Positions 6,877 to 55,003 of a stretch of DNA of 64,000 bases are shown here, in pieces. The notes under the pieces are model-generated. The model did not search any database, was not told the DNA's origin, and saw only the letters and a list, made by a program, of their open reading frames with translations. The stretch spans positions 1-64,000 of the IMG/VR virus record IMGVR_UViG_3300049215_000772. One strand, written 5' to 3'. The translations under genes were made by a program, and so were the position numbers. Position 1 is the stretch's first letter, and each line of letters opens with the position of its first letter. The DNA is from a virus (Duplodnaviria; Heunggongvirae; Uroviricota; Caudoviricetes).

Positions 6877-6907
6877 TCGGCCACAGTGAAAGCACCAGCA
6901 ACGACTA

Positions 6908-6948: not shown

Positions 6949-7033
6949 TGGGGTGACGAGCAAAAGAGTTCCTGGAAACAGGCAGCCGCTTTCTCGTCAC
7001 CCCACCAATACACTCAACATAAGGAAATTACCA

Positions 7034-33091: not shown

Positions 33092-34564
33092 ATGGACGAA
33101 TTTCAAGACTTTATCGACGTTTCTTGTCAAAGCGGCATTATTGAAGAATTGGCGAACAATAACTGTCCGTTTCTGTCGTTACTTTGTGAGCTAATTGACA
33201 ATGTGGCAGCAGAATTGGAACATTGTCAGACCGCCCGTGTTCACATCAAAATTGGTGGCCCTTGGACGACTATTGCCTCAAACAACAGTAAAGTCCTTGA
33301 TCTACAACAGGCATACATGGAGGTTTCTGATAACGCAACTGGCATTAAGTCTGACCGGCTTGCTCATTGTTTGTCGCTGGCTGCGAAACCGGAAAGCAGT
33401 GGTACGTTGCATGAGCATGGGCTGGGCATGAAGACGGCCATCATGAGTCTTGGTAAGTTGGATTATCTCATCACTAAGACGAAGGATGAGGATTTTGCTT
33501 CTCGCATCGACGAACTTACCATTGGTAAAATTCTGCGGCGCAAAGATACTGATACTTTCAAAAAAGGCGAAAGTGGCACGATCATTCGCCTCAAGAACTT
33601 GAAGCCGAAGGTTTACAAAGAGAAGCGATTGTATCTGAGGAATGTTATCGACCACCTTGGCGCTCGCTACGCCCGGCTTCTCACCAAGAACCAAATGACC
33701 GGACGCAAATTGGACATCCAATTTGATTTGCTCGATGAAAACGACAATGTGCGTGATAGCTGGACAATTCAGCCTTGTTTTCCTTTCTACGAAAACAACG
33801 GACGCAACATATTGAAAGAAGAGTTCGGCGGCAATAATTGGGGAGCGCAGCTTGAATTTGGATTCACTCCTTCTGAGTCAGAGTATATCCAAAATGGACT
33901 TGAGGTTCCGGCCAACTCCCATCCTTACAAACGGAATTGTCGGGTGATTGATGTTGTTCACCATGATAGAGTTCTTTGTCGGCTGGGAGCAGATGATTTG
34001 TACCCAGGCTCTCACTATATGTTTGCTCCATTTGTTGGCGTTCTTACTTTGAGGTATGGTTTTCGTACTTCGATGACCAAGGATGGGGTTTTGCGAGATG
34101 AGAACTGGAATGAACTTCTCGAAAAAGTGGTGGATGTCACCAAGGGACTTGTGGAGGAGTATGTTCGACGATACGAACGGCTCACCCAGGACGAAAAAGA
34201 CTACCGAGATCAGTTGTATCAAATTCAAACTAAAGGAGAGGACAAGGAGGTATTGAAAGAGTTTGCTGTTGAGGGAACTGATGGCAACATTGATTTGTTG
34301 GTCAATGACGAAGTGTGGGAACTCAAGGCAGAACAGGCCCAAGGGATTGATGTGTACCAGGTGTTGTATTACATCGACACCTGCGATAAAGCCAAGAAAA
34401 CTAGCGGACGCCTGATTGCTCCGTCTTTTTCTGACGGGTGTAAATGGACTGCCCAACATTTGAAAAAGACAAGGAAGGTTGATGTGAAGTTGAAGACATT
34501 TGAGGATGTCGGTTTGGTGAAGGGTATTGCAGCGAAAAAGAAAGCAAAAAAGAAGTCCATGTGA
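33092..34564 (+). CDS. GHKL (Bergerat-fold, HATPase_c) ATPase
   Basis: N-box 'ELIDNVAAE', G1 'SDNATGI', G2 'HGLGMKTA'. Confidence 0.6.
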   Translation: MDEFQDFIDVSCQSGIIEELANNNCPFLSLLCELIDNVAAELEHCQTARVHIKIGGPWTTIASNNSKVLDLQQAYMEVSDNATGIKSDRLAHCLSLAAKPESSGTLHEHGLGMKTAIMSLGKLDYLITKTKDEDFASRIDELTIGKILRRKDTDTFKKGESGTIIRLKNLKPKVYKEKRLYLRNVIDHLGARYARLLTKNQMTGRKLDIQFDLLDENDNVRDSWTIQPCFPFYENNGRNILKEEFGGNNWGAQLEFGFTPSESEYIQNGLEVPANSHPYKRNCRVIDVVHHDRVLCRLGADDLYPGSHYMFAPFVGVLTLRYGFRTSMTKDGVLRDENWNELLEKVVDVTKGLVEEYVRRYERLTQDEKDYRDQLYQIQTKGEDKEVLKEFAVEGTDGNIDLLVNDEVWELKAEQAQGIDVYQVLYYIDTCDKAKKTSGRLIAPSFSDGCKWTAQHLKKTRKVDVKLKTFEDVGLVKGIAAKKKAKKKSM

Positions 34565-35289
34565 TATTTGAAAGTTCTACACGAGCGCAGTACAATATGG
34601 GTATGCCAAACCATATATGCCAACAATGCGGTGTAGAATTCTACAACAAGAATAGCGGTGCTAGGTACTGCTCGCAGCAATGTACCAAGAACAGCACCAA
34701 GAAAGGCACGAGCGGCAAATGCTACAACTGCGGTAAGGAAGTTTATATTCCGAACCATAAGAACATCCAGAAGACCTTCTGTAGTTGGGAATGCAACATG
34801 GAGGCCCAGCGCAAGAGACGCCCGACTAGGGTGTGTAAGCACTGCGGAAGGGAATTCAAGAAGAAGGCCAGGAGCAATGCGATGTTTTGTTCTCCAGCCT
34901 GCCGTTTGAGTTCAGAATACAACATGCAACAACTTGCCGCCATGAGGAAGAAACAGGCCGGCAAGAAGCCCACCAAATTGGAATTATTGGGATATAGCAT
35001 CCTCGATGAGATCGGCCTGGAGTATGAGAAACAGTACATATTCGACAGATTTGTGGCCGATGCCTATGTTAAAGAACTGAACCTGATCGTACAATTTGAT
35101 GGCGATTACTGGCACGGCAATACCAGTAAGTTTCCGACGCTCTCGGAGTTTCAGATGAAGCAAACAGAAAGAGATCGCCGAGCAGATGCAAAAGCCCGTG
35201 ATCTTGGGCATCGAGTCATCCGGTTGTGGGAATCGGATGTCTACAAGGATCAACAAGCAGTGAAGAACCGCATACTGTTGAAGGAGTGA
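34561..35289 (+). CDS. zinc-ribbon + Vsr-like endonuclease (putative Vsr-family homing/nicking endonuclease)
   Basis: Several CxxC pairs at the N-terminus; C-terminus 'LIVQFDGDYWHGN...ERDRRADAKARDLGHRVIRLWESDV' matches the Vsr 'F.DGCFWHG...ERD.RD...L...GW.V..VWE'; GTG at 34561 or ATG at 34597. Confidence 0.6.
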   Translation: MIFESSTRAQYNMGMPNHICQQCGVEFYNKNSGARYCSQQCTKNSTKKGTSGKCYNCGKEVYIPNHKNIQKTFCSWECNMEAQRKRRPTRVCKHCGREFKKKARSNAMFCSPACRLSSEYNMQQLAAMRKKQAGKKPTKLELLGYSILDEIGLEYEKQYIFDRFVADAYVKELNLIVQFDGDYWHGNTSKFPTLSEFQMKQTERDRRADAKARDLGHRVIRLWESDVYKDQQAVKNRILLKE

Positions 35290-35292: not shown

Positions 35293-36513
35293 ATGCCCCG
35301 GAGGATCGAAGAAGATCACAAAGATTTTCGAGACGTAGTTTCAGGAAAGATTCGCAAAGCCCTCAAGAAGTTCATCAAGTCGGGCCAGATATTCCGCAAC
35401 CGTGGAAAGAACGGCAAGATTTCCATTTCTATCCCCAAGATTGACATCCCTCACATCGTCTACGGCGACACGGGAGAAGGTGTTGGGCGTGGTCCTGGAA
35501 AGCCCGGTGACGTGATTGGCAAAGACCCGCAACCTGGACAGGGTGCAGGCCAGGAGTCCAGCGAAGGTATCACCATCAATCTGGACCTGGAAGAAGTCCT
35601 CAAGTTCATGCAGGACGACTTGGCCCTGCCGAACCTGAAGCCGAAGCCGAACGAGACGTTTGAAGACATCAAGATCAAGTACAACAACATCTCGCTGGTC
35701 GGCCCCGAAAGCCTGCGTCACAACCGCAGAACTTTCCTCCAGGCCATCAAGCGACAGGCGTGCATGGGCACCCTGGATGATCTGCACATGGTTCCTGGCT
35801 GCAAGGAACCCAGGAAGATCATCACTCCCTGGCCGGCTGACAAGCGTTACCGCCAGTACAACGAAATCCGCATTCCGTCGAGCAACGCCCTTATCGTCTA
35901 CGCCCGTGATGGGTCAGGAAGTATGGATGCTGTGAAGTGCGACATCGTGTCGGACATGGCGTGGTGGATCGACGTGTGGATCAGAAGGTTTTACACCCGT
36001 GTCGAGCGCATGTATGTCTGGCATGACTCCGCTGCGATGGAAGTGGACGAAGAGAAATTCTACAAGTACAGGTTCGGCGGCGGTACTACCTGTTCGTCTG
36101 CGTTGAAGTTTATCACCAAGCAGTTCGAGAACAGGTTCCCACCGCAGAAGTGGAATGTCTACGTTTTCTATTTCTCGGACGGCGAGAATTGGGGCGAAGA
36201 TAATGAAGTGTTCATCAACACCCTGAAGGAAGAGTTCCAGCCTCATATTGTGAACTTTGTCGGCATCACGCAGATTCTTGCTTACAATTACGATGGCTCC
36301 CTGAAGCATATTGTCGATGAGGCGATTAAGTCCAACATACTCGACAAGGATCAGGTGAGAACAGTGTCCATTGGTCAGGAAACTACGCCGGCTGCTGGTA
36401 GTCCGTGGAGTCCGCCCAGCTTGACGGAAGAACAACGCAACGAACAAGTGCTGCGGGCCATCAAGCAACTGCTGGGCAGCAAGAAGTCCGACAAGGAGGA
36501 GAAGGACGACTGA
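35293..36513 (+). CDS. yeaH: YeaH/YhbH (DUF444, vWA-like) protein
   Basis: 'DLALPNLK', 'DGSGSMD', 'SDGENWGED' match E. coli YeaH 'DLALPNLK', 'DVSGSMD', 'SDGDNW'. Confidence 0.85.
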   Translation: MPRRIEEDHKDFRDVVSGKIRKALKKFIKSGQIFRNRGKNGKISISIPKIDIPHIVYGDTGEGVGRGPGKPGDVIGKDPQPGQGAGQESSEGITINLDLEEVLKFMQDDLALPNLKPKPNETFEDIKIKYNNISLVGPESLRHNRRTFLQAIKRQACMGTLDDLHMVPGCKEPRKIITPWPADKRYRQYNEIRIPSSNALIVYARDGSGSMDAVKCDIVSDMAWWIDVWIRRFYTRVERMYVWHDSAAMEVDEEKFYKYRFGGGTTCSSALKFITKQFENRFPPQKWNVYVFYFSDGENWGEDNEVFINTLKEEFQPHIVNFVGITQILAYNYDGSLKHIVDEAIKSNILDKDQVRTVSIGQETTPAAGSPWSPPSLTEEQRNEQVLRAIKQLLGSKKSDKEEKDD

Positions 36514-36749
36514 TGTTTTACTACTGTATGGCCTGCGGTGAGGAGTTGGAGTCACCAGGAATAGGGTATTACTATTCCCAAGAGTGTAAGAAGTGTAACA
36601 AGTTCAACGTCAGTGTATATTGGTATGGCTACGATGTAAACATTGACGACAAGTTCTTCCATTTTGATGAATCTGGCTATGGGAACAGGGAAAGCCAACA
36701 AGCCTTAGAGGAATACCTCAAGCAAAGGAGCGAGCAAAATGGGCAATAA
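36512..36749 (+). CDS. small zinc-ribbon protein coupled to yeaH
   Basis: TGATG overlap with the yeaH stop; 'CMACGEE...CKKCNK'. Confidence 0.45.
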
Positions 36750-38334
36750 GTTCATGCACGGATCGAGCATCTTGCTCGGCGACAATACAGTTCCCGGCGT
36801 GCAACTCCCAAAGGAGATGAAGGAAAACGTCCCCATCATCCTTCAGGCTTGTCGGGATTGGGGGTTGGATTTCTACCCCACAGTGGTCCAACTGCTGACC
36901 TACGACGAAATCTCCGAGATCGCTGCCTACGGCGGCTTCCCGGTCAGGTATCCTCATTGGCAGTTCGGTATGGAGTACGAAGAACTTCAGCGGGGCTATG
37001 AGTTTGGGATGCACAAGATTTACGAGATGGTCATCAACACCAATCCCTGCTACCAGTGGTTGCTGAGTTCCAACAGTCTGGAAGACAACCTGACCGTCGT
37101 GGCTCATGCTACAGGGCACAATGACTTCTTCAAGAACAACATCCATTTCAGCGCCACCGACACCAACATGCTGAACAAGATGGCGAACCACGGCACCCGT
37201 ATTCGCCGTTACATGACCAGGTGGGGCAAGGAGCGTGTTGTTGAGTTCATCGACCATGTTCTGCGGCTGGAGACGTTGATCGACGGGGCTGAGGCGTGGA
37301 CACAGAAAACGATCCGGGACAGGAACCTTTCGGATCAAAGGAAGTACCGCCATCCGAGAAGGTTGAAGGTGAGCAAGGAACGGCTCTACATGGAACCGTT
37401 CATCAACACACGGGACTTCCGCCAGGAAGAAAACAAGCGGATTTCCAAGCTGGACACGGCGGACGAAATTGGCCTGTTCACTGATCCGACCAAGGATATT
37501 CTTGGTTTCCTGCGGGACAATGCTCCTCTCAAACCGTGGCAGCAGGACATTGTTGCCATGTTGTATGAAGAAAGTTTGTACTTCTATCCGCAAAGACAAA
37601 CTAAGGTAATGAACGAAGGGTGGGCCTCGCTGACCGACCATATTATCATGGCCCGGCAGGGTTATATCGCCCTGGGTCAGAAACAGCATGATATGGGTAT
37701 TGTTGAGTATGCCGCTCACAAGATGGGAGTTCTTGGCGGCAAGTACAGCATGAACCCGTACAAGCTGGGCTTCTACTTGTTCCTGGACATTGAAGAAAGA
37801 TGGAACAAGGGCCAGTTCGGTACGGAGTGGGATGAGTGCGACGACATCAGGAAGAAGGAAAAGTGGGACACTGGCGCAATGCTCGGCAAGGAGAAGATTT
37901 TCGAGATCAGGAAGTATTATGACGACCTGACTTTCCTGAATGAGTTCTTCACCGAGGACTTCTGCCGGGCACAGGAATACTTCTACTGGAAGCACTATCC
38001 GAATGGTGAGTACCGATTGGAGCATCGTGACTTCAAGGAAATCAAGGCTGGGTTGATGCGCCGCCACCTGAACGGAGGGTTGCCTTCCATCAAGCTGACT
38101 GAGCCGAACTACCGTGGCAAGGGGTTCATGATGCTCCAGCATGATTGGGACGGGCGTGCGATTTACGATCCGTATGTTCGTGATGTTATGACTTCGTTGC
38201 GATTCTTGTGGGGCAACGACATTTTCTTGGCAACGAAGGACGATGATGGCCGAGAAGCCATTTATGGTTGCTATGGAACTGCCGAGGATGATGTTGAATT
38301 GGTTTCCCGCAAGGACCATATGAAGGATTGGTAA
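36739..38334 (+). CDS. spoVR: SpoVR/YcgB-family protein
   Basis: 'WGLDFYP...AAYGGFPVRYPHWQFGMEYE', 'HATGHNDFFKNN' and full-length colinearity with SpoVR. Confidence 0.85.
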   Translation: MGNKFMHGSSILLGDNTVPGVQLPKEMKENVPIILQACRDWGLDFYPTVVQLLTYDEISEIAAYGGFPVRYPHWQFGMEYEELQRGYEFGMHKIYEMVINTNPCYQWLLSSNSLEDNLTVVAHATGHNDFFKNNIHFSATDTNMLNKMANHGTRIRRYMTRWGKERVVEFIDHVLRLETLIDGAEAWTQKTIRDRNLSDQRKYRHPRRLKVSKERLYMEPFINTRDFRQEENKRISKLDTADEIGLFTDPTKDILGFLRDNAPLKPWQQDIVAMLYEESLYFYPQRQTKVMNEGWASLTDHIIMARQGYIALGQKQHDMGIVEYAAHKMGVLGGKYSMNPYKLGFYLFLDIEERWNKGQFGTEWDECDDIRKKEKWDTGAMLGKEKIFEIRKYYDDLTFLNEFFTEDFCRAQEYFYWKHYPNGEYRLEHRDFKEIKAGLMRRHLNGGLPSIKLTEPNYRGKGFMMLQHDWDGRAIYDPYVRDVMTSLRFLWGNDIFLATKDDDGREAIYGCYGTAEDDVELVSRKDHMKDW

Positions 38335-38343: not shown

Positions 38344-38526
38344 ATGGAGAAGTTTGAGATTACGTTATTCACAGGCGAAGGTTTGGCCGAGTTCACTGAT
38401 CGGCTCGGCTTCATTCTGATGGAACTTGGCGTGAAGTTCAGGGTGAAAGAGTTTCACGATGACTTCATGGTATTCGAGTTCATTCAGGCCGAGCGGCTAG
38501 ATGAAGATGGCAAGAAAAAAAGTTGA
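38344..38526 (+). CDS. hypothetical small protein
   Basis: ORF only. Confidence 0.3.
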   Translation: MEKFEITLFTGEGLAEFTDRLGFILMELGVKFRVKEFHDDFMVFEFIQAERLDEDGKKKS

Positions 38527-39184
38527 TTTGGTTGAATTGCTGGGCCAGGTTCACAACTACGAAGTGAACCTGGCTACCAGGGAAATTTACCTTCACAGTC
38601 ATTACAACGCCAGTGGGCCAGACGAAGAAAGTGGGGTGGAGTTTCGCATGGCTACCACCTTCATCAAGAATCTTCACGTTCTTGATCTCGCTGACGATGC
38701 GCCTATTTTAGTTCACCTTCAATCGCCTGGAGGGGATTGGGGTCACGGGATGGCGATATTCGACGCCATCCGAGCAACGAATTCCCCCGTCACTATCCTC
38801 GCTCACGGCGAAGTTTCATCCATGAGCGGCATCATATTCCAAGCGGCTGTACACCGCATAATGATGCCGAGTTGCGAGATGATGATCCACAGGGGCTTTT
38901 TGTCGTTGGATGGTGTTTCTTCAACAGTACAAGCCAACGCTTTGTGGAACAAAAGAACTGATACAAAGATGTTGCAAATATATGCGTCTCGTGCCATAAT
39001 GGGCAAGTATTTTACCCAGGGAAACATGACGCATCAGCAGGTGTTGCGTTTCATCGACCGAAAGATTCAGAAGGTTGGAGATTGGAACCTGGACGCCGAG
39101 CAAGCCGTTTTCTACGGTTTGGCAGATGGCATATATGGCGAGCCTGGGTATGACACACTCAAAGAAATTCGGAGATTAGCATGA
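38501..39184 (+). CDS. clpP: ClpP-family serine peptidase
   Basis: 'LQSPGGDWGHGMAIFDAI', Ser in 'GEVSSMSG', His in 'MMIHRG'. Confidence 0.7.
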   Translation: MKMARKKVDLVELLGQVHNYEVNLATREIYLHSHYNASGPDEESGVEFRMATTFIKNLHVLDLADDAPILVHLQSPGGDWGHGMAIFDAIRATNSPVTILAHGEVSSMSGIIFQAAVHRIMMPSCEMMIHRGFLSLDGVSSTVQANALWNKRTDTKMLQIYASRAIMGKYFTQGNMTHQQVLRFIDRKIQKVGDWNLDAEQAVFYGLADGIYGEPGYDTLKEIRRLA

Positions 39185-41474: not shown

Positions 41475-42902
41475 ATGAAGAAATGTGAAATTTGCGGGTT
41501 TGAACACCTGCATCTCCATACCGATTTCAGCCTTCTCGATGGCTATGGGATGGTTGAGGAATATGCTCTCCGGGCACCCAAAATCAACCAGAAATTTCTG
41601 ACAGTTTCCGACCACGGTATGATGGGCGTGGTCCCCCGTCAGATCAAAGCATGTGAGAACATCTGCAAAGCCAACGGCAAAGATGCCCTCTCCCCCATTT
41701 TTGCCTGTGAACTATATGTCAACCGCCTCCAGCCTGAATGCAACAACCCGAACGATATGCAGAAGTTCATGAAGGGTCTGAATGAGGAAGACCTTCGTGA
41801 AGTGCGCCAATATGGGGCACACCTTCTTGCTATCGCCTACAACGAAACAGGTTACAAAAACCTGGTCCGACTTTCTTCCTGGGGCTGGACCAAGGGCTTC
41901 TATCGCCGGCCCAGGGTTAATTACGATCAACTCATCAAGCATCGTGAGGGCTTGTTTTTCACGTCCTGCTGCTACGCTTCTGAGGTCGGCAAAGCCTTCG
42001 ACCGTGGCCTCAAGATCAGCGAAGAAGCCGCCTACGAAGCTGGATACCAGATGATCCAGCGCTACCTGGATATGTTTGGTCGGGAGCATTACTTTCTGGA
42101 AATGATGCTCCTTGACTTCAAGAAACAGAAGCCCTATGACAAATTCATCGTGGCGGCTGCCGAGAAGTTTGGGTTGCGGCTCATCATCACCAATGATTGC
42201 CACTACTGCCAGCAGGAAGACAGCCACTACCAGCGGCTTATGTTGATGGTGCAGACGAACCGCACCCTCCAGGAAATCCAGAAGGCAATGGCTGAAGACT
42301 CCATGCAGGACTTCTTCGAGTTGCAGGACGCCAACTTGTGGATGAAGTCCGAGGAGGAAATCAACGAGAAGTGGTTGCGGGACTACAGCGATGTGATCCC
42401 CTACGAACTTTTCTGTGAGGCCAAGCGCAACACGGTCTGGATTTGCAACAAGGCCAAGGGCGTCAAGTTGGATCGCAGCCTCAAGTTGCCCGTGTTGGAT
42501 GGGGCCGATGAAAAACTCAAGGAAGAGATCATGAGGGGTTTCGCCAAGCGTGGACTGCCCAAAACCCGTGAATATCTGGATCGTATCAAGGAAGAATACA
42601 GCCTCATCTGGCGGAAGGGGTTTTCCTCCTACTTCCTGCTTCAGAAGATGATGACCGATGAGGCTCGGCGTGTCAGCCCGCAATTGTTGGGTTGGGGTGA
42701 CGGCAGCGAAGCCGTGGGTCCGGGCCGTGGTAGCGCTGTTGGTGCCCTCACTTGCTACTGTTTGGGAATTACCGACGTGGACCCCGTATATGAAGGGTTG
42801 TTGTTCAGCCGCTTCATGAGCGAGGCCCGTGGCGGTAGGCATATTGTGTTGGATTTCCGTAACATTGATCCCCTGCCGCCCGACGAGGCATTCGCAGCAT
42901 GA
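41475..42902 (+). CDS. dnaE: DNA polymerase III alpha (DnaE-type) N-terminal fragment: PHP domain through the start of the palm
   Basis: 'HLHLHTDFSLLDG' PHP motif; 'GPGRGSAVGALTCYCLGITDVDPV...LLFSRF' matches DnaE '[30 protein letters not shown]'; stops before the catalytic 'PDxDxD'. Confidence 0.8.
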   Translation: MKKCEICGFEHLHLHTDFSLLDGYGMVEEYALRAPKINQKFLTVSDHGMMGVVPRQIKACENICKANGKDALSPIFACELYVNRLQPECNNPNDMQKFMKGLNEEDLREVRQYGAHLLAIAYNETGYKNLVRLSSWGWTKGFYRRPRVNYDQLIKHREGLFFTSCCYASEVGKAFDRGLKISEEAAYEAGYQMIQRYLDMFGREHYFLEMMLLDFKKQKPYDKFIVAAAEKFGLRLIITNDCHYCQQEDSHYQRLMLMVQTNRTLQEIQKAMAEDSMQDFFELQDANLWMKSEEEINEKWLRDYSDVIPYELFCEAKRNTVWICNKAKGVKLDRSLKLPVLDGADEKLKEEIMRGFAKRGLPKTREYLDRIKEEYSLIWRKGFSSYFLLQKMMTDEARRVSPQLLGWGDGSEAVGPGRGSAVGALTCYCLGITDVDPVYEGLLFSRFMSEARGGRHIVLDFRNIDPLPPDEAFAA

Positions 42903-43132
42903 AACGCTTCATTCATGTTAATCAACACATCATCAAGGCCAACAGGAAGTACGGCAAGCGTGACCCGGTGCTGACCGTGAAAACCTACAAGGACAATGAA
43001 TATGGACACGAAGTCCATATCGACGGTCCCTGCAAGATTGTCTATAGGCCAGACAAGCCGCTTTCGTGCGGGGCAACGGTCTGGATTGAAACGGACTCGG
43101 AAGTTTTCGTGGTTCGTGCCGACGCAGGCTGA
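42899..43132 (+). CDS. hypothetical small protein
   Basis: ATGA-coupled to the dnaE fragment. Confidence 0.35.
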   Translation: MKRFIHVNQHIIKANRKYGKRDPVLTVKTYKDNEYGHEVHIDGPCKIVYRPDKPLSCGATVWIETDSEVFVVRADAG

Positions 43133-43148
43133 TTGCTTTACAATCACA

Positions 43149-43177
43149 AAGCCCCGTGGTAGAATCCACGGGGCTTT
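43149..43177 (+). terminator. rho-independent terminator
   Basis: 9-bp stem 'gccccgtgg tagaat ccacggggc' followed by TTTTT. Confidence 0.5.
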
Positions 43178-43194
43178 TTCTATTTGGAGACAAC

Positions 43195-45051
43195 ATGAGC
43201 CGAGAAATCGACCAGAAGTGGCAGCAGAAGTGGGAAGAAACAGGTTTGTATAACGTGGACCTGAATACGGAGGGTCCAAAGTTCTACCTGCTTTCCATGT
43301 TCCCCTATCCGAGCGGGAATCTGCATCTCGGCCACTGGTATGCCCTGGCCCCCGCAGATGCCTACGCTCGCTTCCAGCGTATGCACGGCAAGGAAGTCTT
43401 CTTCCCGATGGGTTTCGACGCCTTCGGACTGCCGGCAGAAAATGCCGCCATCAAGCACAAGGTACAGCCGAAGGAATGGACGGAGAAGAATATCGCCCGG
43501 ATGACGGAACAACTCAAGACAATGGGTTGCATGTTCCCCTGGGAGTACACGCTGAGAACGTGTGATCCAAATTACTACAAGTGGAACCAGTGGTTGTTCC
43601 TTCAGTTCTACCACAAGGGACTGGTCTACAAGGACAACGCCCCCGTGGACTTCTGCCCGCAGTGCCAAACGACTGTGGCCAAAGAACAAGTTGTTGATGG
43701 CGACTGTGAGCGCTGTGGCACGCCGGTTGTTCAGAAGGCGATTCCTTCCTGGAAGTTGAGAATTACTTCCTACAAGGACGATTTGTTGAACTTCGCTGGC
43801 CTGGACTGGCCTGAGAAGGTCATCAAGATGCAGGAGAACTGGATCGCCGATCTGAGGGATTGGAACGTCTCTCGTCAGCGCATGTGGGGCACGCCCATCC
43901 CGATGATTAAGTGCCCGCAGTGTGGTGATGTGCCGGTGTCTACCTTCGATCTGCCGATCATGCTCCCGGATGATGCCGAATTCCTGCCCACGGGTGAGAG
44001 TCCACTGAAGCAACACCCGACTTTCAAGCATGTGGAATGTCCCAATTGTGAAGGTCCAGCCGAGCGGGAAACCGACACGCTGGACACTTTCTTCTGTTCG
44101 TCCTGGTATCAGTACGCCTACCTGAACCGGGATCGGGAGAATCAGGCATTCTACACCGATTGGGTCAACAACTGGTGTCCGGTGAACTTGTACACGGGCG
44201 GCATCGAACATGCTTGTATGCACTTGTTGTACTTCCGATTCTTCAGCAAGGCGATGCTGGATTGTGGCATCTTGTCGGAAGAGTTCACGATTCCTCGTGC
44301 TGAACCTGCCAAGAAGTTGTTCAATCAGGGCATGATCTTGGGGCCGGACGGCTACAAGATGAGCAAGTCCAGGGGCAACGTGGTCGATCCCGATGAATTG
44401 GTTGAGGACTACGGGGCAGACGTGGTTCGGGCGGCTTTGATGTTCATTGGGCCGTGGGACCAGGGCGGCACCTGGAGTATCAACCTGGCGGGCATCGAGC
44501 GATTCCTGAATGATGTCGAGAAGATTGCCGCCATGCCGCCGAGGAATCAGGATCGGCTCAACCCGGAGTGTGCTGTTACCAGGGCGATAAATCGTACTTG
44601 TCCCAGGGTTTACAAGGACTATGAGGCGATGAAGTTCAACACTGTCATCTCCTGGCTGATGCAGCTTCGGAACGTGATGTTGGAACACTACGACACGACG
44701 CCGGGCTTGTCCTGGCAGAATGCCGTGGACTGTCTGTTGCTGATGCTGGCTCCTATCTGTCCTCATCGTACTGAGGAGGCGTGGAGCAAGATTCACAGTG
44801 AAGTAGGCAGCATTCACAAATACCCATTCCCGGCGAAGATCGCCCTGGAAGACCCGGAAACAGCAACTATTGTTATTCAGATCAACGGCAAGAAGCGGGC
44901 GCTGGTGGAACAAATGGACGGAGATGATCTGGACGACGTGTTGGAGTACCCCGAAGTGCAGGCCGTGGTAGAAGGGTTGGAAATTACCAGGACGGTGAAA
45001 GTTCCGGGTAGGATCATCAACTTCGTTGTGAAACGAACAATTGACGACTGA
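43195..45051 (+). CDS. leuS: leucyl-tRNA synthetase lacking the CP1 editing domain
   Basis: 'PYPSGNLHLGHW' (HIGH), 'GFDAFGLPAE', 'MQENWIADLRDWNVSRQRMWGTPIP', 'GGIEHACMHLLYFRFF', 'YKMSKSRGN' (KMSKS); where E. coli has about 190 aa of CP1 between 'MQRNWIG' and 'LRDWGVSRQR', here the two are directly fused; GGAG RBS. Confidence 0.85.
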   Translation: MSREIDQKWQQKWEETGLYNVDLNTEGPKFYLLSMFPYPSGNLHLGHWYALAPADAYARFQRMHGKEVFFPMGFDAFGLPAENAAIKHKVQPKEWTEKNIARMTEQLKTMGCMFPWEYTLRTCDPNYYKWNQWLFLQFYHKGLVYKDNAPVDFCPQCQTTVAKEQVVDGDCERCGTPVVQKAIPSWKLRITSYKDDLLNFAGLDWPEKVIKMQENWIADLRDWNVSRQRMWGTPIPMIKCPQCGDVPVSTFDLPIMLPDDAEFLPTGESPLKQHPTFKHVECPNCEGPAERETDTLDTFFCSSWYQYAYLNRDRENQAFYTDWVNNWCPVNLYTGGIEHACMHLLYFRFFSKAMLDCGILSEEFTIPRAEPAKKLFNQGMILGPDGYKMSKSRGNVVDPDELVEDYGADVVRAALMFIGPWDQGGTWSINLAGIERFLNDVEKIAAMPPRNQDRLNPECAVTRAINRTCPRVYKDYEAMKFNTVISWLMQLRNVMLEHYDTTPGLSWQNAVDCLLLMLAPICPHRTEEAWSKIHSEVGSIHKYPFPAKIALEDPETATIVIQINGKKRALVEQMDGDDLDDVLEYPEVQAVVEGLEITRTVKVPGRIINFVVKRTIDD

Positions 45052-45087: not shown

Positions 45088-46305
45088 TTACATTGAGAGG
45101 TTGCCCCCGCCCATTGCTCCCATACCGCCCGCATCTTGTCCCATCGGGCTATCTTTGAGTGCTGCCATCAAGTGATGGTGAGCGTGCTTTTTCTTCTTCT
45201 TTCTGGTTGGCATGATCTTGCTGCCTGGTGCGAGATCGGCATCTTTGTCGCCGTGGTGTCCATGCGGTCCCATTGTTGGGTCGTGGTCATCTCCACCCAG
45301 GCCCATATCATCGCCGCCTAGTCCCATGTCATCGCCACCCATGCCGCCCATGCCCATATCATCGTCGCCGCCTAGTCCCATGTCATCGCCGCCCATTGGG
45401 TGTCCGTGCGGCCCATCCATGTCGTGATGGCCGTGGTGTCCGTGAGGAGGCCCGCCCAGGCCCATATCATCGCCGCCCATGCCCATGTCGTCATCGCCCA
45501 TACCCATGTCCATATCATCATCAGAGCCGTGCATGTCTTCCGGGTGGGGTGGTTTCGATGGATCGTCGTCATCGTCGTCGATGTCGTCTTTGTGTGCTGG
45601 TGGGCCAACCATCTCGTTCATGGCCCTGACGAGACGGCGGGCGTATTTTTCATCACGCTCCATGAAGTGAGCCATGACTTTGTAGGTTTCGTCGTGCTGA
45701 AGCATCTCGGCAACCATCTTGCCGAACGCCTTGTTTCGCTTCATTTCACGGACGAGGGTAATCATGACCGACTGGTTGGCGTTTGCCAAAGCGACAGCCT
45801 GGCGAACAACATCGTTGGCCGACTCCTGGCAGGCACACTCGTTGGTGATCTTGTCGATTCCCTTGGAGGTAGTCTTCTGGATCATCTTGGTGAATTCGGC
45901 CAGGGACATGCCCTTGGTGCGGTTCAGCCATTCCTGGGTTTTGGTTTTGTTCCAATCACTGGAAACAGTTTTGCCACCCGGAACACCAGCAGCTTCTTTG
46001 CCGCCCGTGATGAAGTTACCTTTTTCCTTGTCGCCCGGAGTGTATTTCAAATCTTTGTCACCCTTGTCGGCAAAACCACCATCTAGCTTGCCCTTGTTGG
46101 GGTCTTTGGCGTCTTTGCCGCCCTTGTAGGGTTTTGGTTGACCCTGGCCTTTGCCGCCAGCGTCTTTGTGTTTGTTTTCTTTCTTAGGCGCAGATTCCTT
46201 GGGACCGCTGTAGTCGGCCTTGGCTTCGATTTTGCCTTTGGTAGAAAACTTCGACTTGGTGTCGAGATATTCCTGAAATGTCTTGTGGGCCATGTGTTTC
46301 TCCAT
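45088..46305 (-). CDS. acidic repeat protein ('DDMG[LM]GG' x ~10, His-rich)
   Basis: 405-aa ORF; basic N-terminal third, central helical domain, C-terminal tandem Asp/Met/Gly repeats; the matching nucleotide tandem repeats span about 45283..45520. Confidence 0.5.
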   Translation of the reverse strand: MEKHMAHKTFQEYLDTKSKFSTKGKIEAKADYSGPKESAPKKENKHKDAGGKGQGQPKPYKGGKDAKDPNKGKLDGGFADKGDKDLKYTPGDKEKGNFITGGKEAAGVPGGKTVSSDWNKTKTQEWLNRTKGMSLAEFTKMIQKTTSKGIDKITNECACQESANDVVRQAVALANANQSVMITLVREMKRNKAFGKMVAEMLQHDETYKVMAHFMERDEKYARRLVRAMNEMVGPPAHKDDIDDDDDDPSKPPHPEDMHGSDDDMDMGMGDDDMGMGGDDMGLGGPPHGHHGHHDMDGPHGHPMGGDDMGLGGDDDMGMGGMGGDDMGLGGDDMGLGGDDHDPTMGPHGHHGDKDADLAPGSKIMPTRKKKKKHAHHHLMAALKDSPMGQDAGGMGAMGGGNLSM

Positions 46306-47559: not shown

Positions 47560-47920
47560 GGGGGCGCAACGGCTTCTACGGAGTGTGATGTGACTGAAGT
47601 GGCACGCACTGGTTGGTCAGCAGGCCAGTATAAAAGCAGACCATCGCTTTAACCGGCGAAACTCAGTTCGCAATGGCGGCTTGACCGCCAGGGCTTGAAG
47701 GAAGCGACGTGATTTAGCGTCTTTCTAGCCCTCGCAAAATAATCACTGGCTTCACCCTTGCAGATACGGTGAAGTGAGAAACCGATTCTGCTGGTCCCAA
47801 CCGGCCTTTGTCTGTTGTCGGTAAGTTGGGGTGAGACGCCGAAAGGCAAAACAACAGAACAAGCGTGTAGATGCTCATTCACTAGCAGTTCGGACAGGGG
47901 TTCGACTCCCCTCGCCTCCA
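47560..47920 (+). ncRNA. ssrA: tmRNA (ssrA), one-piece, about 361 nt, CCA not encoded
   Basis: 5' 'GGGGGCGCAACGGCUUCUACGG' (compare E. coli 'GGGGCUGAUUCUGGAUUCGACGG'); 3' 'UUCGGACAGGGGUUCGACUCCCCUCGCCUCCA' (compare 'UUCGGACGCGGGUUCAACUCCCGCCAGCUCCA'). The 7-bp acceptor stem GGGGGCG/CGCCUCC keeps the G3:U70 alanine identity pair. Internal tag frame 47646..47684 'GCU UUA ACC GGC GAA ACU CAG UUC GCA AUG GCG GCU UGA' gives (AL)TGETQFAMAA*. Confidence 0.75.
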
Positions 47921-47935
47921 CTGGTGATTAGGCCA

Positions 47936-49206: not shown

Positions 49207-49574
49207 TCTTGGGTTGTGTGTCCTTTGCTGGTCCACATCTTGATGCCTTCCTTGCTCAATATCTCATCCCTCGACACTTCCCTTCTTCCGAAAGTCCAAT
49301 TGGGCTGAAGTCTTACTTCCTCGTTGCGAAACAGCCAGGATTCCCCTGTGGCGTCGATGAAGACTTGCCATATCAGGGAATGCTCGGTGCTGTAGTCGAT
49401 GATGATATGCGCCATGCCCCGCCCTTTGGGAGTTTCCAACGGTATTGGTGGGTTGAGTTGTACAATCACAACATATATCCTTTCGATATTCTGCTCTTTT
49501 ATCGTTCGATTCAAAGCCGTATAATCCATCGTACCTGGAGGATATACGATGACACGATCCGATGAGAATCGCAA
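49203..49574 (-). CDS. hypothetical protein
   Basis: ORF only. Confidence 0.35.
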   Translation of the reverse strand: MRFSSDRVIVYPPGTMDYTALNRTIKEQNIERIYVVIVQLNPPIPLETPKGRGMAHIIIDYSTEHSLIWQVFIDATGESWLFRNEEVRLQPNWTFGRREVSRDEILSKEGIKMWTSKGHTTQD

Positions 49575-50613
49575 GCTAAACGAGCTTCTTGAAAATCAGA
49601 ATACTGCTGCCCATCATAAATTTGCCAGAGTGAGTTGTAGTGGGGATTCCCCTGTTGCCGATGGAGTGCCTACAACATCGAGTGACGAGAAGGATTTGGC
49701 GGGACTTGTTCAGTGGACGACGGGGGATGGCAAGCGTTTCGTCCCAGCCAGTCACACTGCTGAGAAGTTGACGCCTGGCGTGTACGAGATTCAGCACTCG
49801 AACACCATTGGCATTTATTTCGAGAGAATCCCGGTCCTGACATTGGGCCTGTTGCGTTTTCCGCAAACCAACTCCGAACGGGTGTTGGAGGAAATCCAGA
49901 AGTTTTGGCAGAAGGCAGACATTTTCAAAGAATACAACCTGACCCACAAGCGGGGCATCATCATGTGGGGACCGCCCGGTAGCGGTAAATCCTGCACGAT
50001 CCAACTCATCATGAAAGATGTCGTGGACCGCAACGGTGTGGTCATCAAGTTCACCCACCCGCACTTGTTCAACGAGGGCATGAGGAAGTTCCGGGAGATT
50101 GAACCGGATACACCTGTGGTTGTTCTAATGGAGGATATTGACTCGATATTGGAGCAGTTCAACGAGTCTGAAGTCCTCAATATCCTCGACGGCATCAATC
50201 AAATCGAGAAGGCTGTCTTCTTGGCAACCACCAATTACCCGGAGCGGCTGGGTGCCAGGATCATCAATCGGCCTTCTCGTTTCGACAAGCGATTCTTCAT
50301 CGGACATCCCGACGAGGAAAGCCGCAAGTTGTACTTCCGGCATATCATTGGTGATGATAAGATCAAGCAACTCAGTATCGACCTGGACAGGTGGGTTGCT
50401 GATACCGACGAGTTCTCCATCGCTCACCTGAAGGAGTTGTTTACTGCCGTCGTCATCTTGGGTGACGATTATGACGAGGCCGTTGAAACTCTAAAAACGA
50501 TGAAGGAAGAATACATTACTTCCGACAACGATGAGCGCCGCAATCCAATGGGATTTGGCAATATGCCAAAGCGACTTACCGCCACGAGAAAGCAGAGGTC
50601 TAGCTATGAATGA
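49549..50613 (+). CDS. classic-clade AAA ATPase with a unique ~150-aa N-domain
   Basis: Walker A 'GPPGSGKS', Walker B 'VVLMEDIDS', sensor-1/SRH 'FLATTNYPERLGARIINRPSRFDKRFFIG'. Confidence 0.75.
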   Translation: MTRSDENRKLNELLENQNTAAHHKFARVSCSGDSPVADGVPTTSSDEKDLAGLVQWTTGDGKRFVPASHTAEKLTPGVYEIQHSNTIGIYFERIPVLTLGLLRFPQTNSERVLEEIQKFWQKADIFKEYNLTHKRGIIMWGPPGSGKSCTIQLIMKDVVDRNGVVIKFTHPHLFNEGMRKFREIEPDTPVVVLMEDIDSILEQFNESEVLNILDGINQIEKAVFLATTNYPERLGARIINRPSRFDKRFFIGHPDEESRKLYFRHIIGDDKIKQLSIDLDRWVADTDEFSIAHLKELFTAVVILGDDYDEAVETLKTMKEEYITSDNDERRNPMGFGNMPKRLTATRKQRSSYE

Positions 50614-51213: not shown

Positions 51214-52524
51214 ATGGTTACTAGGGAACTGTTTGAGTCCACTTGTCAGAAGAAGCTCGAAGATATGGGGGTCGCTGATGACCCCCGCTACAAGAAGCGA
51301 CTCGCCTGGGAACTTGGCGAGATCAATGCCAAGGGCAAGCACGATTACTTCTGGTCGATGCACGAGAAGAAGGTCCGCTATCCCCTCAATCAGAACAATT
51401 TGCTCATCTGCAAGTTGCTGGGAATTTGCAAAGACTACAACATCGAGAACGACCCAAACTGCGAGTACGGCAGCTACCCCGACATCGACATCGACTACCT
51501 CGACATCGTTCGGGACTACCTGAAAACTGATTGGGCACCCCGTATCTTCGGGGAAGAATATGTCTGCAACATCGGCAACTACACCACTTTCAAGATCAAA
51601 TCGGCCCTCATCGACATGGCTCGTGTCCACAGCGAGAGTCGTGAAGAAATCCAGGCCATCACCAAAAACCTTGACGACAAGGACGACGAGGGCAAGGCCA
51701 TCACTTGGGATGCAGCGATGAAGCTGTACCCGGACCTGAAGAAATACTGTGAGGAACACAAGGACGTTGCTGAAGCCGCCAAACGACTTCTCAACCGCAA
51801 CCGTGGGATGGGCGTCCACGCCGGGGGACTCATCATCTCCAGCATCCCCCTTTCCGACCTGGTGCCGCTCGTCAAGCGTAAGGACAATCCACAGGCCAGT
51901 GCGTGGGTGGAAGGTTTGCACGGCCAGGACTTGGGGCCGGTCGGCCTGGTGAAGTTCGACTTGCTGGTAATCAACAACCTGCTCCAGATTGCTAAGTGCT
52001 GCAAACTTGTCAAGGAGCGGCATGGGCTGGCTGGTATTTGCGCCCTGCCCGGCAAAAGCGATTGGACCGATGTGAATGCCTGGCGCAACGATCCCAAAGC
52101 CCTGGCAATGGCTGACAAGGGCGACCTGAAGGGTATCTTCCAGTTCGACAAAGATACTGTTCGCACAATGGCCCGCAGGGGTGGCGTGACCAGGTTTGAA
52201 GACCTGATTGCCTACACCAGCCTTAACCGGCCAGGGCCGATGCAGTGTGTGAAGGAAAGCACGAATGTTTCGACATCCGTGGGGCAGAGTCCAATCGAGA
52301 AACTTGAGCCTGGGCATGATGAAATTGCTTATCTCGGCGGCGATGGTATGTTGAAACACACCAAGCGATACTTCGTCACCAAAACGAAGAAAAAGAGTCT
52401 GTTGAAAATCACGACTCGTTCCGGCAAGGTGCTGTACGTCTCTCCCGACCACCGCATTCTCACCGAAAGCGGGTATATCCGAGCCGATAATCTCGAAAAA
52501 AGCCAGAAAGTTGCTTCCATTTAA
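51214..52524 (+). CDS. dnaE: DnaE middle fragment (palm with catalytic 'PDIDIDY') fused to a split-intein N-fragment
   Basis: 'YPDIDIDYLD', 'GVHAGGLII', 'GLVKFDLLVI', 'GIFQFDK', 'LNRPGPMQ' match E. coli DnaE palm motifs; then 'CVKEST...GKVLYVSPDHRILTESGYIRADNL' shows Hint block A (Cys1, Thr6) and block B (TxxH as 'SPDH'). Confidence 0.8.
   Translation: MVTRELFESTCQKKLEDMGVADDPRYKKRLAWELGEINAKGKHDYFWSMHEKKVRYPLNQNNLLICKLLGICKDYNIENDPNCEYGSYPDIDIDYLDIVRDYLKTDWAPRIFGEEYVCNIGNYTTFKIKSALIDMARVHSESREEIQAITKNLDDKDDEGKAITWDAAMKLYPDLKKYCEEHKDVAEAAKRLLNRNRGMGVHAGGLIISSIPLSDLVPLVKRKDNPQASAWVEGLHGQDLGPVGLVKFDLLVINNLLQIAKCCKLVKERHGLAGICALPGKSDWTDVNAWRNDPKALAMADKGDLKGIFQFDKDTVRTMARRGGVTRFEDLIAYTSLNRPGPMQCVKESTNVSTSVGQSPIEKLEPGHDEIAYLGGDGMLKHTKRYFVTKTKKKSLLKITTRSGKVLYVSPDHRILTESGYIRADNLEKSQKVASI
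52246..52521 (+). mobile_element. split intein N-fragment (IntN, about 92 aa) at the DnaE 'RPGPMQ|C' junction
   Basis: Begins with Cys directly after the conserved 'RPGPMQ'; the Hint N-terminal blocks align with cyanobacterial DnaE IntN 'CLSYETEILT...ATKDHKFMT'. Confidence 0.65.
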
Positions 52525-52565: not shown

Positions 52566-53567
52566 ATGCTGTGTAAGATATGTGGTCGTGATATTTCTGG
52601 CAAGTTCTATTTGCATCTGAACGGCAGCCACAAGATGCGGAAGGATGATTATTTACAGATGTTTCCTGAGCAGGCTGCTGAATATGATGGTCAGGTTCCC
52701 AAGCAGGCTTGGAACAAAGGTTTGACAAAACATACTCATCCTTCTGTGGCTAGATGCGCAGAGCAGGCGGCGGTATACTCTCGACGTGAAGATGTTCGTA
52801 TTTTCCGCTCTGAGCATATGAAACAGCGATATGAGGGTGGTGATATTGTGGACTCGGCAACACGAGCAAGGATTGTCGAAGCAGGCACGCATGGTTGGGT
52901 AAAAAAAATTCAATCTGCTTCTGAAGAAGAACGACGAAAACTTCTTTTTGCTTTCACACGGGCCGGGAATGCCCGTCAGGAGGAGTTGAGAGCGACCCGC
53001 ACGCCAGAAGACTTTCAGAAGTTATACCCTTGGGCAAAAGGTATTGCTACTTGGGGAAGTTGTTATGGATGTGGGAAGCAGATGATTATTTGGCTCGGCG
53101 GCAAACCACGACCCAAACGAAGATTTTGTTCTTCGGAGTGTTGTGTCGAGTATAGAAAGAAGCACCCATATTTCACTTTTGAGACAGGCATGAGATATTA
53201 TTCGACCAAGATGGAAACGGAATTTTATCTGCGATCCAATTTAGAGGTATGGTTCGCAGAGACATTGGATGCTTGTGAGAAGGTGAGGGGATGGATTGCA
53301 AGTCCATGCTCTATTGAGTATGGCCTCAATGGTAAAACTCGCACTTATCATCCTGATTTTTTGGTGGATGGCTATTGGTTGATGGAGTTGAAGTCTGGCT
53401 ATGTATACAGCATCAGGAAAGAAGAAACCGAAGCGAAGTTGAAAGCGGCTACAAAGTACGCTTCCAACAACGGCCTAGAGTTTGTATATTGGCAATTCAA
53501 TGAGTCCAATATGACGGCTGCAAAGTTTGCAGCCGATCTACGGGTGAAAGCATTTATGGGTGAATGA
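52566..53567 (+). CDS. zinc-finger + PD-(D/E)xK nuclease (free-standing homing endonuclease candidate between the intein halves)
   Basis: 'CKICGRDIS...H', 'CYGCGK...CSSEC'; C-terminal 'YHPDFLVDGYWLMELKSG' (D...E.K); same family as 20352..21050. Confidence 0.5.
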   Translation: MLCKICGRDISGKFYLHLNGSHKMRKDDYLQMFPEQAAEYDGQVPKQAWNKGLTKHTHPSVARCAEQAAVYSRREDVRIFRSEHMKQRYEGGDIVDSATRARIVEAGTHGWVKKIQSASEEERRKLLFAFTRAGNARQEELRATRTPEDFQKLYPWAKGIATWGSCYGCGKQMIIWLGGKPRPKRRFCSSECCVEYRKKHPYFTFETGMRYYSTKMETEFYLRSNLEVWFAETLDACEKVRGWIASPCSIEYGLNGKTRTYHPDFLVDGYWLMELKSGYVYSIRKEETEAKLKAATKYASNNGLEFVYWQFNESNMTAAKFAADLRVKAFMGE

Positions 53568-54097
53568 TGGATGCGGACATTGTGGTTATGTCGGATTGGC
53601 TGCTTTCTTTCCCTGATTTTGAGCGTAGGTTTGTGTCTACAGTAAGACATGCTGTGTCCTATGCTCTCTATCCAATCGGCGAGGAGTTACAGGATATTGG
53701 AAAGGCCGAGAAGACCATTATCGGAATTAAGTGGGAGCAATTCTTTCGACGAGAATTCGACATTCCTCCCGGTGAAAATCTGGATTGTAGCCTTTTGATT
53801 CCTTGGAGGTCTAGGGGGATTGAATTCGATTGCAAGTTGACAGTTGGCAATCAGTGGATGATCCCACCTGAATTGATACGGATTGAAGGATTGTGCCTGG
53901 TTTGTCAATACAGTGAGGCGCAGCACATCCGGGCAGGCGTACTCAGGGTGAAGGAAGAATATCTGAATATGGCTGGAAGCAACCGAGATCGAAAAAGGAT
54001 TCTCAACCAACATGGTAGGGAAGCCATTGATTGGATTTTGGAAGAGTCAAATTCTCCGCACATGATCCGGCCACTGCAAGCTATTATTGGAGGTTGA
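53564..54097 (+). CDS. hypothetical protein (possible nuclease partner of the adjacent methyltransferase)
   Basis: ATGA-coupled to the upstream gene and overlapping the MTase start; no clear motif. Confidence 0.35.
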   Translation: MMDADIVVMSDWLLSFPDFERRFVSTVRHAVSYALYPIGEELQDIGKAEKTIIGIKWEQFFRREFDIPPGENLDCSLLIPWRSRGIEFDCKLTVGNQWMIPPELIRIEGLCLVCQYSEAQHIRAGVLRVKEEYLNMAGSNRDRKRILNQHGREAIDWILEESNSPHMIRPLQAIIGG

Positions 54098-54872: not shown

Positions 54873-54879
54873 GGTTTCC

Positions 54880-55003
54880 ATGACGATTGCCTGGGATGAA
54901 ATTGTCTCTATTGAGCAAGTGGAGGATGGACAGTGCTATGACATCACTCTTCTCGAAGATGATGTTTACTTGGATGAGCCGAATTTCATTGCTGATGGGA
55001 TCG
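54880..55003 (+). mobile_element. split intein C-fragment (IntC, about 41 aa)
   Basis: Blocks F/G 'CYDITL...[12 protein letters not shown]' (compare Npu IntC 'VYDIGVERDHNFALKNGFIASN|C'). Confidence 0.65.

Follow-up and report, generated by a model that had tools for sequence, protein, structure and literature searches.

The first 64,000 nucleotides of the IMG/VR virus record IMGVR_UViG_3300049215_000772 (hereafter the window), which is assigned to the Caudoviricetes, contain a gene for a bacterial-type leucyl-tRNA synthetase (LeuRS) from which the CP1 editing domain has been cleanly excised. This LeuRS gene is a real, maintained phage gene under purifying selection, and a survey of viral and cellular sequences suggests that the LeuRS genes of giant phages commonly lack CP1, as do those of some bacteria. 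Editing by LeuRS is usually held to be near-universal, with the enzyme of Mycoplasma mobile as the textbook exception; the survey suggests that this exception is common in nature, and the phage-wide pattern is a more interesting result than the single gene of the window.

The CP1 deletion and the remaining enzyme

The product of the window gene scores 636.6 bits against the NCBIfam model TIGR00396 (leuS_bact), compared with an equivalog cutoff of 548.4, its best matches in the Protein Data Bank are all LeuRS, and Pfam detects tRNA-synt_1 and Anticodon_1 in the protein and gives no match to the LeuRS editing domain, PF13603. Translation likely starts at the ATG at position 43195, which stands just 3' of a GGAG(A) Shine-Dalgarno sequence (43186-43190), and the N-terminal sequence MS.EID that it specifies is common to all four relatives of the enzyme. 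A GTG at 43156, which would yield a protein of 631 amino acids, was considered as the start and rejected, as it lies inside a 12-bp hairpin and the relatives begin at the ATG. The gene and its recognizable elements, all on the + strand, are as follows.

43195-45051 (including the stop codon), +: coding sequence of a CP1-less bacterial-type LeuRS of 618 amino acids (open reading frame, Pfam, NCBIfam and alignments)
43324-43335, +: HIGH signature, H44-L-G-H47, of which H44, G46 and H47 are invariant in two alignments
43654-43716, +: ZN1 zinc knuckle, C154, C157, C171 and C174 (conserved cysteines; Thermus thermophilus alignment)
43828-43881, +: fusion junction, M212-QENWIA218/D219-LRDWNVSRQR229, with the deletion point between nucleotides 43848 and 43849
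43912-44049, +: ZN2-containing insertion with C240, C243, C282 and C285, kept here (alignment) and absent from the LR745206-type phage mini-LeuRS discussed below
44341-44370, +: GPDGY spacer (GPDG, residues 383-386) followed by KMSKS, residues 388-392 (alignments)
44584-44901, +: anticodon-binding helical domain, PF08264, residues 464-569 (Pfam E = 2e-13)
44860-45036, +: C-terminal tRNA-binding domain, residues ~556-614, which aligns to T. thermophilus LeuRS until residue 877 and is beta-rich in the structure model
45034-45048, +: acidic C-terminal tail R-T-I-D-D, specific to the clade of the window enzyme (alignment)

When the window enzyme is aligned with T. thermophilus LeuRS (1h3n), its residues 5-218 correspond to T. 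thermophilus 9-225 and its residues 219-397 to T. thermophilus 418-593, and T. thermophilus residues 226-417 are missing. When E. coli LeuRS and the closest bacterial homologs are aligned with it by MAFFT, A218/D219 falls at E. coli G225/R416, and E. coli residues 226-415 (190 amino acids) are missing. The junction reads KMQENWIA followed directly by DLRDWNVSRQRMWG, and the flanking motifs MQxNWI and LRDWxVSRQRxWG are joined by merely 0-2 linker residues; all full-length homologs among the matches listed carry the PF13603 domain. A preliminary description, made from the letters of the window alone, had proposed a clean deletion of roughly 190 residues that fuses the flanks of CP1 and leaves the catalytic core and the anticodon-binding region intact. 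The alignments bear this out, in that HLGH, KMSKS and PF08264 are all found and neither an intact nor a divergent CP1 is present.

Other parts of the synthetic site are kept as well. MFPYPSG, D75 within GFDAFGLPAE, and GGIEHAxxHLLYFRFF are invariant across 69 sequences and align to T. thermophilus LeuRS at positions that we take to be its adenylate pocket. The C-terminal tail is present as RTIDD, RSIDD or RTIDS in 5 of the 5 members of the clade, and bacterial LeuRS lack it. The leucine-specific insertion of the E. coli and Thermus enzymes is missing from the window LeuRS, in which GPDGY stands in its place between QGMIL and KMSKS. Loss of this domain was considered as a phage innovation and rejected; the closest full-length bacterial LeuRS also lack it, and its absence is therefore inherited rather than a phage-specific event.

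An AlphaFold2 model of the enzyme, built from 69 sequences, has a mean predicted local distance difference test score (pLDDT) of 90.2 and a predicted template modeling score (pTM) of 0.86. Across the junction, the helix of residues 207-218 leads to W223 via a four-residue loop, DLRD, at a pLDDT of 88-94. In Foldseek searches the model matches bacterial LeuRS with query-normalized TM-scores (TMq) of 0.82-0.85 and target-normalized scores (TMt) of merely ~0.6, and it matches E. coli LeuRS-tRNA aminoacylation complexes with a TMq of 0.85. The M. mobile LeuRS (3ziu) is the sole Foldseek target that is matched over both full lengths (TMq 0.79-0.81, TMt 0.81-0.85), and no other solved structure shares the architecture of the window enzyme.

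A protein identical to the window LeuRS is on record (P0001) on a contig of 673,178 bp, and four further protein clusters (610-617 amino acids, 61-72% identity) also lack PF13603, a domain that is present in every other match listed. The window and these relatives, five divergent genomes from different samples, have the same in-frame junction, and the pairwise ratio of non-synonymous to synonymous change (dN/dS) within the clade is 0.08-0.19, with dS saturated. The metagenomic origin of the sequence could invite the suspicion of an assembly artefact or of a decaying pseudogene, but the shared junction, a dN/dS of at most 0.19 and the confident model over the junction are all at odds with it, and we therefore regard this explanation as excluded for practical purposes.

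Another possibility is that the enzyme is split, with CP1 encoded by a separate open reading frame (ORF) elsewhere in the genome and acting in trans. Free-standing editing proteins exist for other synthetases (PMC7373986), and the window is ~10% of the genome, the search for CP1 and for tRNA-Leu genes in this phage having covered 64 kb of ~673 kb. A hidden Markov model (HMM) of CP1, built from 113 bacterial homologs, gave a best E of 3.7 in six-frame translations of the window and of five related, syntenic loci, compared with 8e-58 for an E. coli control, so that the absence of a separate CP1 ORF, which the preliminary description presupposed, holds for the 64-kb window. In addition, tblastn searches with CP1 against 50,697 GenBank phage records gave matches confined to records with full-length bacterial-type LeuRS, and found nothing anywhere in the complete 735-kb and 635-kb genomes of two huge phages that have a CP1-less LeuRS. 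With 64 kb of the ~673-kb genome, the syntenic loci and these two genomes covered, a split enzyme is considered very improbable. In the Listeria, Staphylococcus, Enterococcus and Acinetobacter 'phage' records that were matched in two pieces, the LeuRS is full-length, of bacterial type and has CP1; these genes are in all likelihood host DNA and were set aside as evidence on phage LeuRS.

CP1-less LeuRS in phages and bacteria

The two huge phages just mentioned, LR756501 (735 kb) and LR745206 (635 kb) in GenBank, each encode a LeuRS-like protein without CP1, of 508 and 422 amino acids, respectively. Some 45 CP1-less clusters are of the LR756501 type (~510-545 amino acids, contigs up to 549 kb) and at least 120 are of the LR745206 type (~420 amino acids, contigs up to 780 kb). 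Both types lack the C-terminal domain; in addition, ZN2 is missing from the LR745206 type and the ZN1 cysteines from the LR756501 type. No other phage version of the enzyme is as complete as that of the window clade, which has ZN1, ZN2 and both the anticodon-binding and the C-terminal domains.

Three members of the LR756501-type clade (P0159, P0162 and P0164, ~646 amino acids) have, where CP1 would be, ~115 residues that contain a reduced CP1 in which the editing motifs TTxxxT and GTGxVMGVPxDDxRD can still be read. These proteins are nested in the tree among fully CP1-less relatives and look like intermediates in domain erosion, and the remnants therefore indicate that CP1 was eroded inside this clade. 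The tree is a bootstrapped neighbor-joining tree of 410 shared core columns, with long branches and with the M. mobile sequence left out, and the groupings that bear on the history of CP1 are these.

Window clade with its own bacterial relatives (SAR324, Chloroflexi and Firmicutes types): bootstrap 100%
LR756501 type with Campylobacterota-like LeuRS: bootstrap 95%
Window clade with either of the other two phage clades: 0 of 100 bootstraps

These groupings therefore point to independent losses of CP1 in huge phages, at least two and probably three or more. A single ancestral loss for all phage LeuRS was rejected on the basis of the tree and of the members of the LR756501-type clade with a CP1 remnant.

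A motif-seeded, alignment-based scan of IMG/VR provided 37 informative LeuRS-like loci; a scan of the same collection with a single protein as the query returned no match. The loci fall into three states.

No CP1: ~29 loci, on contigs up to 608 kb
CP1 remnant only: 4 loci, on contigs of 46-149 kb
Full CP1: 3-4 loci, on contigs of 11-66 kb

An exhaustive phmmer search of 1.84 billion representatives added, among the best 150 matches, ~10 more single-stretch CP1-less LeuRS of 626-706 amino acids, most of which have linkers of 8-15 residues and a few of which have tight junctions. Three of these proteins (635-650 amino acids) are encoded in plainly cellular gene contexts. Among the loci inspected, L010 (2140-4047) has a CP1-less leuS in the order DciA-HD-leuS-lptE-holA-rpsT-greA, with the tight junction NWIENRMRDW; in L011 (10001-11953), from a Bacillota metagenome-assembled genome, the gene adjoins cdaA-ybbR-glmM-glmS; and in L013 (10001-11917) it stands amid toxin-antitoxin and cofactor genes. 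At locus L015 (3974-5908), on a viral contig of 415 kb (IMGVR_UViG_3300050120_000230), there is a CP1-less, otherwise full-length LeuRS of 645 amino acids with the junction NWIGKDEDGNTMLRDW; it shares 38% identity with the window LeuRS and probably represents one more independent lineage among the phages.

The LR756501 genome (LR756501.1, locus L008) also has five tRNA-Leu genes (UAG, GAG, CAA, UAA and UAG, at 4620-5164) upstream of its LeuRS gene (5986-7512), with one ORF between. Two of these tRNAs are merely 74-75 nucleotides long and, when folded as cloverleaves, have short variable loops, unlike normal bacterial tRNA-Leu, and they may form a co-evolved pair with the mini-LeuRS.

The claim of the preliminary description that CP1-less LeuRS are known only in a few mycoplasmas agrees with the searchable literature (PMC3643597; PMC7373986) and fails for the sequence databases, in which most IMG/VR LeuRS-like loci, more than 160 protein clusters from contigs of huge-phage size and bacterial genes in ordinary contexts such as leuS-lptE-holA lack CP1. 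We found no prior description of a CP1-less phage LeuRS in the searchable literature, the coverage of which is incomplete. Taken together, these proteins are a natural series of minimal LeuRS, with linkers of 0-15 residues, with or without the C-terminal domain, and in some cases with CP1 remnants of ~115 residues, that can be used to test the contribution of CP1 to aminoacylation, tRNA release and fidelity.

The phage genome and the surroundings of the LeuRS gene

The phage nature of the window is supported by hallmark matches and by the 673,178-bp contig on which the identical protein is found. For example, a major head protein is matched at 2737-3813, and there are also matches to a gp32-like single-stranded-DNA-binding protein, a UvsX-like recombinase and ThyX; the window further encodes PrkA, ClpP, an AAA ATPase, a DEAD helicase and a PolyA_pol/CCA-type nucleotidyltransferase. 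When 12 kb around the LeuRS gene were compared with the GenBank phages by megablast there was no match, and the phage therefore has no close sequenced relative among them. The contig of one of the four relatives is an IMG/VR viral genome. Features of the window that surround the LeuRS gene are listed below.

12983-14212, -: PolyA_pol/CCA-type nucleotidyltransferase, ~30 kb from the LeuRS gene
38501-39184: ClpP, ~9 kb upstream of the transfer-messenger RNA (tmRNA)
41475-42902, +: split DnaE N-terminal fragment (PHP domain), the conserved upstream neighbor of LeuRS in 5 of 5 genomes
43137-43190, +: control region 5' of LeuRS, with a promoter-like element, a hairpin and the Shine-Dalgarno sequence
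47560-47923, +: tmRNA with the tag GETQFAMAA (Rfam, 103.5 bits), 2.5 kb downstream of LeuRS
49549-50613: AAA ATPase

The LeuRS gene is probably expressed from its own promoter, judging by the control region. A promoter-like TTTACA-N17-TAGAAT element (43137-43165) is embedded in a hairpin (12 bp, GC-rich, with a T-run; 43148-43177). A TTTACA/TA(G/C)AAT pair in or beside a hairpin precedes LeuRS in the window and in three of the four relatives. The extended motif TTTACAA-N15-GGTAGAAT has two copies on the + strand of the window (43137-43177 and 62737-62765), compared with 0.00 expected, and motif and hairpin together may be a phage promoter-stem-loop cassette. In the copy upstream of LeuRS the -10-like hexamer is in the loop of the 12-bp hairpin, and such a hexamer is in or by a hairpin loop in three of the four relatives, though the stem sequences differ.

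The relatives share the gene order PrkA-DUF444-SpoVR, usually ClpP, the N-terminal DnaE fragment and LeuRS, followed, where the contig reaches that far, by a tmRNA (two relatives), the AAA ATPase and the rest of DnaE. The tmRNA, ClpP, AAA ATPase and CCA-type enzyme to which the preliminary description pointed as nearby genes do exist in the window, the last at some distance. Its reading of LeuRS, ClpP, the AAA ATPase and the CCA-type enzyme as parts of a takeover of translation and its quality control is unsupported, as the neighbors conserved in the five genomes are the split DnaE halves, with a tmRNA in three.

The DnaE (DNA polymerase III alpha) gene of the window is in three pieces (41475-42902, 51214-52524 and 54853-56739, all +), and LeuRS, the tmRNA and the AAA ATPase are within the 8.3-kb gap that separates pieces 1 and 2. 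Piece 2 ends with NRPGPMQ/CVKEST and a TxxH-like block, and piece 3 starts with GIVVHN/CGMDK; to judge from these ends, pieces 2 and 3 seem to carry the halves of a naturally split intein. The 2.3 kb between the putative intein halves contain genes for TnsA-like (52566-53567) and NaeI-like (53564-54097) endonucleases plus an ORF without an assignment at 54087-54872, and the placement of split-intein halves around endonuclease genes is a 'fractured gene' arrangement.

In the relatives L001 (14771-15125) and L002 (13692-14042) the tmRNA is at the equivalent place, 2-3 kb downstream of LeuRS. The tag it encodes is GETQFAMAA in the window and GKSDLAMAA in the relatives, with AMAA at the end where ALAA is usual. 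The PrkA, DUF444 (YeaH-like) and SpoVR (YcgB-like) triad, normally a bacterial stress or sporulation module, is complete in the window (30668-32779, 35293-36513 and 36739-38334, +) and kept in all relatives. In the window, PrkA and DUF444 are separated by two insertions, a gene for a HATPase_c_3 protein (33092-34564) and a DUF559 endonuclease-like ORF (34561-35289), and in relative L002 there is an intein inside PrkA.

Two ORFs flank the LeuRS gene directly. Downstream, on the opposite strand, an ORF of 405 amino acids (45088-46305, -) has in its second half an extreme abundance of Asp, Gly, Met and His along with (G)DDMG(L/M)GG repeats; it had no Pfam or PHROG match, and ORFs of 353-367 amino acids occupy the equivalent place in the relatives. 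A small conserved ORF of 77 amino acids (42899-43132, +; 73 amino acids in L001) between the DnaE N-terminal fragment and LeuRS had no family match.

Function of the enzyme and its known counterparts

We favor, with moderate confidence, the explanation that the window gene encodes an active, non-editing LeuRS that supplements leucyl-tRNA charging during infection, and that its loss of CP1 is tolerated. The enzyme would be made from its own promoter while the ~673-kb phage infects its host, and would add Leu-tRNA(Leu) charging for host tRNAs, phage tRNAs or both, with tRNA presumably bound via the anticodon-binding and C-terminal domains that have been kept. Without CP1 it is predicted to be unable to hydrolyse mischarged tRNA(Leu) itself, and fidelity would be left to discrimination at the synthetic site; tRNA-independent pre-transfer hydrolysis may occur, as in M. 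mobile LeuRS, and the editing LeuRS of the host, presumably still present, would clear mischarged tRNA that is released. In the simplest view the loss of CP1 would be a tolerated reduction, because the synthetic site rejects isoleucine, norvaline is a threat only conditionally, editing would matter little within the short span of a single infection cycle, and the LeuRS of the host is able to edit in trans. For example, isoleucine is kept out by the LeuRS synthetic site at ~1e-5 without editing and is not misincorporated in vivo, and norvaline is the physiological target of LeuRS editing (PMC4932531).

The same observations bear on the idea that an error-prone LeuRS is supplied in order to diversify proteins at leucine codons, an idea akin to the suggestion in the preliminary description that the phage deliberately relaxes fidelity. 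It could draw on the mischarging of isoleucine by M. mobile LeuRS in vitro (PMC3643597), on the misincorporation at leucine codons in Mycoplasma and microsporidia, the groups in which, according to a 2020 review, degenerate LeuRS editing is known (PMC7373986), and on the norvaline found at 10% of leucine positions in editing-dead E. coli under microaerobic conditions (PMC4932531). However, isoleucine does not enter proteins in vivo even without editing, and norvaline builds up solely under special conditions, being a real threat only when cells are microaerobic (PMC4932531). In addition, the CP1-bearing enzyme of the host should persist and clear released mischarged tRNA, there is no evident benefit to the phage, and tolerance explains the pattern equally. 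Deliberate relaxation of fidelity is thus speculation, and we regard programmed mistranslation as quite improbable.

Two observations weigh against an active enzyme in which the loss of CP1 is simply tolerated. CP1 or its linker supports aminoacylation, and CP1 stabilizes tRNA during charging (PMC3643597); human LeuRS cannot do without a 'CP1 hairpin' (PMC4138327). The phage junction is nearly linker-free, whereas M. mobile LeuRS has a nonapeptide at this site, and the activity of the window enzyme could therefore be low or altered, which calls for caution. In addition, the repeated, independent loss of CP1 in phages could reflect positive selection rather than tolerance.

Such selection would be expected if the loss helps the phage, whether by faster product release, by the use of unusual phage tRNA(Leu) or by insensitivity to agents whose action runs through the editing site, such as host regulators or compounds by which tRNA-Leu is trapped in CP1. 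The independent losses in huge-phage LeuRS, at least two or three in number, and the predominance of CP1-less genes on viral contigs are in keeping with an adaptive specialization, as are the five tRNA-Leu genes, two of them short-loop, beside the LeuRS of LR756501, which lacks both CP1 and the C-terminal domain, and the finding that insertion of CP1 into M. mobile LeuRS raises tRNA affinity and lowers kcat (PMC3643597). But relaxed selection together with a deletion bias would also give recurrent loss, the CP1-less leuS genes of cells show that loss is not phage-specific, there is no candidate inhibitor or regulator, and no tRNA gene of any kind, tRNA-Leu included, was found within the 64-kb window. 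We therefore consider an adaptive origin unlikely, if worth keeping in view. Slightly more doubtful is a broader proposal, that giant phages lost LeuRS editing convergently and adaptively and so possess a private, proofreading-free charging system, which in some lineages includes tRNA-Leu with a short variable arm; such a system would escape host control exerted via CP1 or the tRNA 3' end, or would create condition-dependent ambiguity at leucine codons.

It is also conceivable that the protein has a role outside translation and, by binding tRNA(Leu) or forming Leu-AMP, acts as a sensor, as a regulator or as a donor to another acceptor. Bacterial LeuRS need their C-terminal domain in order to aminoacylate, and other phage versions (422-545 amino acids) lack this domain, one type also lacking ZN2. 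There are precedents in the archaeal LeuRS-I and the haloarchaeal LeuRS2, paralogs in which CP1 is disrupted and aminoacylation is not seen (PMC9437257). However, the window LeuRS keeps all tRNA-binding and catalytic elements and passes the NCBIfam equivalog cutoff, and the C-terminal and anticodon-binding domains are conserved throughout its clade, so a non-canonical role has a low probability for this protein.

The pattern raises a question for phage biology, namely whether giant phages tolerate lower translational accuracy or exploit it. It also has a practical side, in that benzoxaborole-type drugs act via the editing site and enzymes without CP1 should be intrinsically insensitive to them.

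Among known enzymes, M. mobile LeuRS resembles that of the window in being of the bacterial type, without CP1 and without the leucine-specific domain, and in keeping the C-terminal domain. In M. mobile the nonapeptide 227-KEEIDGKIT-235 replaces CP1 and 398-GKDG-401 replaces the leucine-specific domain, and the enzyme aminoacylates, shows no deacylation and carries out tRNA-independent pre-transfer editing (PMC3643597). The G-x-D-G spacer before KMSKS is thus GKDG in M. mobile and GPDG in the window, and the nonapeptide at the CP1 site contrasts with 0-2 residues in the window enzyme; in the alignment of the junction (query 1-61, chain 191-262) 3ziu is ~11 residues longer. The window LeuRS has 34% identity and 347 bits to 3ziu, compared with 470 bits to the Thermus enzyme and 45-51% identity to those of CP1-containing bacteria, from which we conclude that its deletion is independent of the mycoplasma deletion. 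The M. mobile enzyme is a cellular housekeeping protein of a reduced genome, whereas that of the window is an auxiliary gene product of a 673-kb phage. An engineered counterpart, the E. coli LeuRS delta-CP1 of Boniecki et al. 2008 (PNAS), was reportedly cut at about the same boundaries and is said to aminoacylate still and to have pre-transfer editing; this construct reportedly has an added linker and keeps the leucine-specific domain.

Huge phages with up to 15 tRNA synthetases, tmRNAs and CCA-adding enzymes were described by Al-Shayeb et al. 2020, the main text of which makes no mention of editing-domain loss (PMC7162821); neither do two overviews of jumbo phages. The LR756501 and LR745206 genomes come from that study and carry CP1-less LeuRS-like genes, and the window LeuRS belongs to a different, more complete lineage. 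In microsporidia and other Mycoplasma the loss of LeuRS editing is likewise tolerated, but CP1 is mutated rather than excised (PMC7373986). The LeuRS-I of Sulfolobaceae and the LeuRS2 of haloarchaea are likewise extra LeuRS copies with a compromised CP1; however, they are archaeal-type proteins with little or no aminoacylation and with divergent C-termini, whereas the window LeuRS keeps all canonical bacterial elements (PMC9437257). In this comparison the window LeuRS is an independently derived minimal LeuRS of the M. mobile type, distinguished by its near linker-free junction and by its place in a phage genome.

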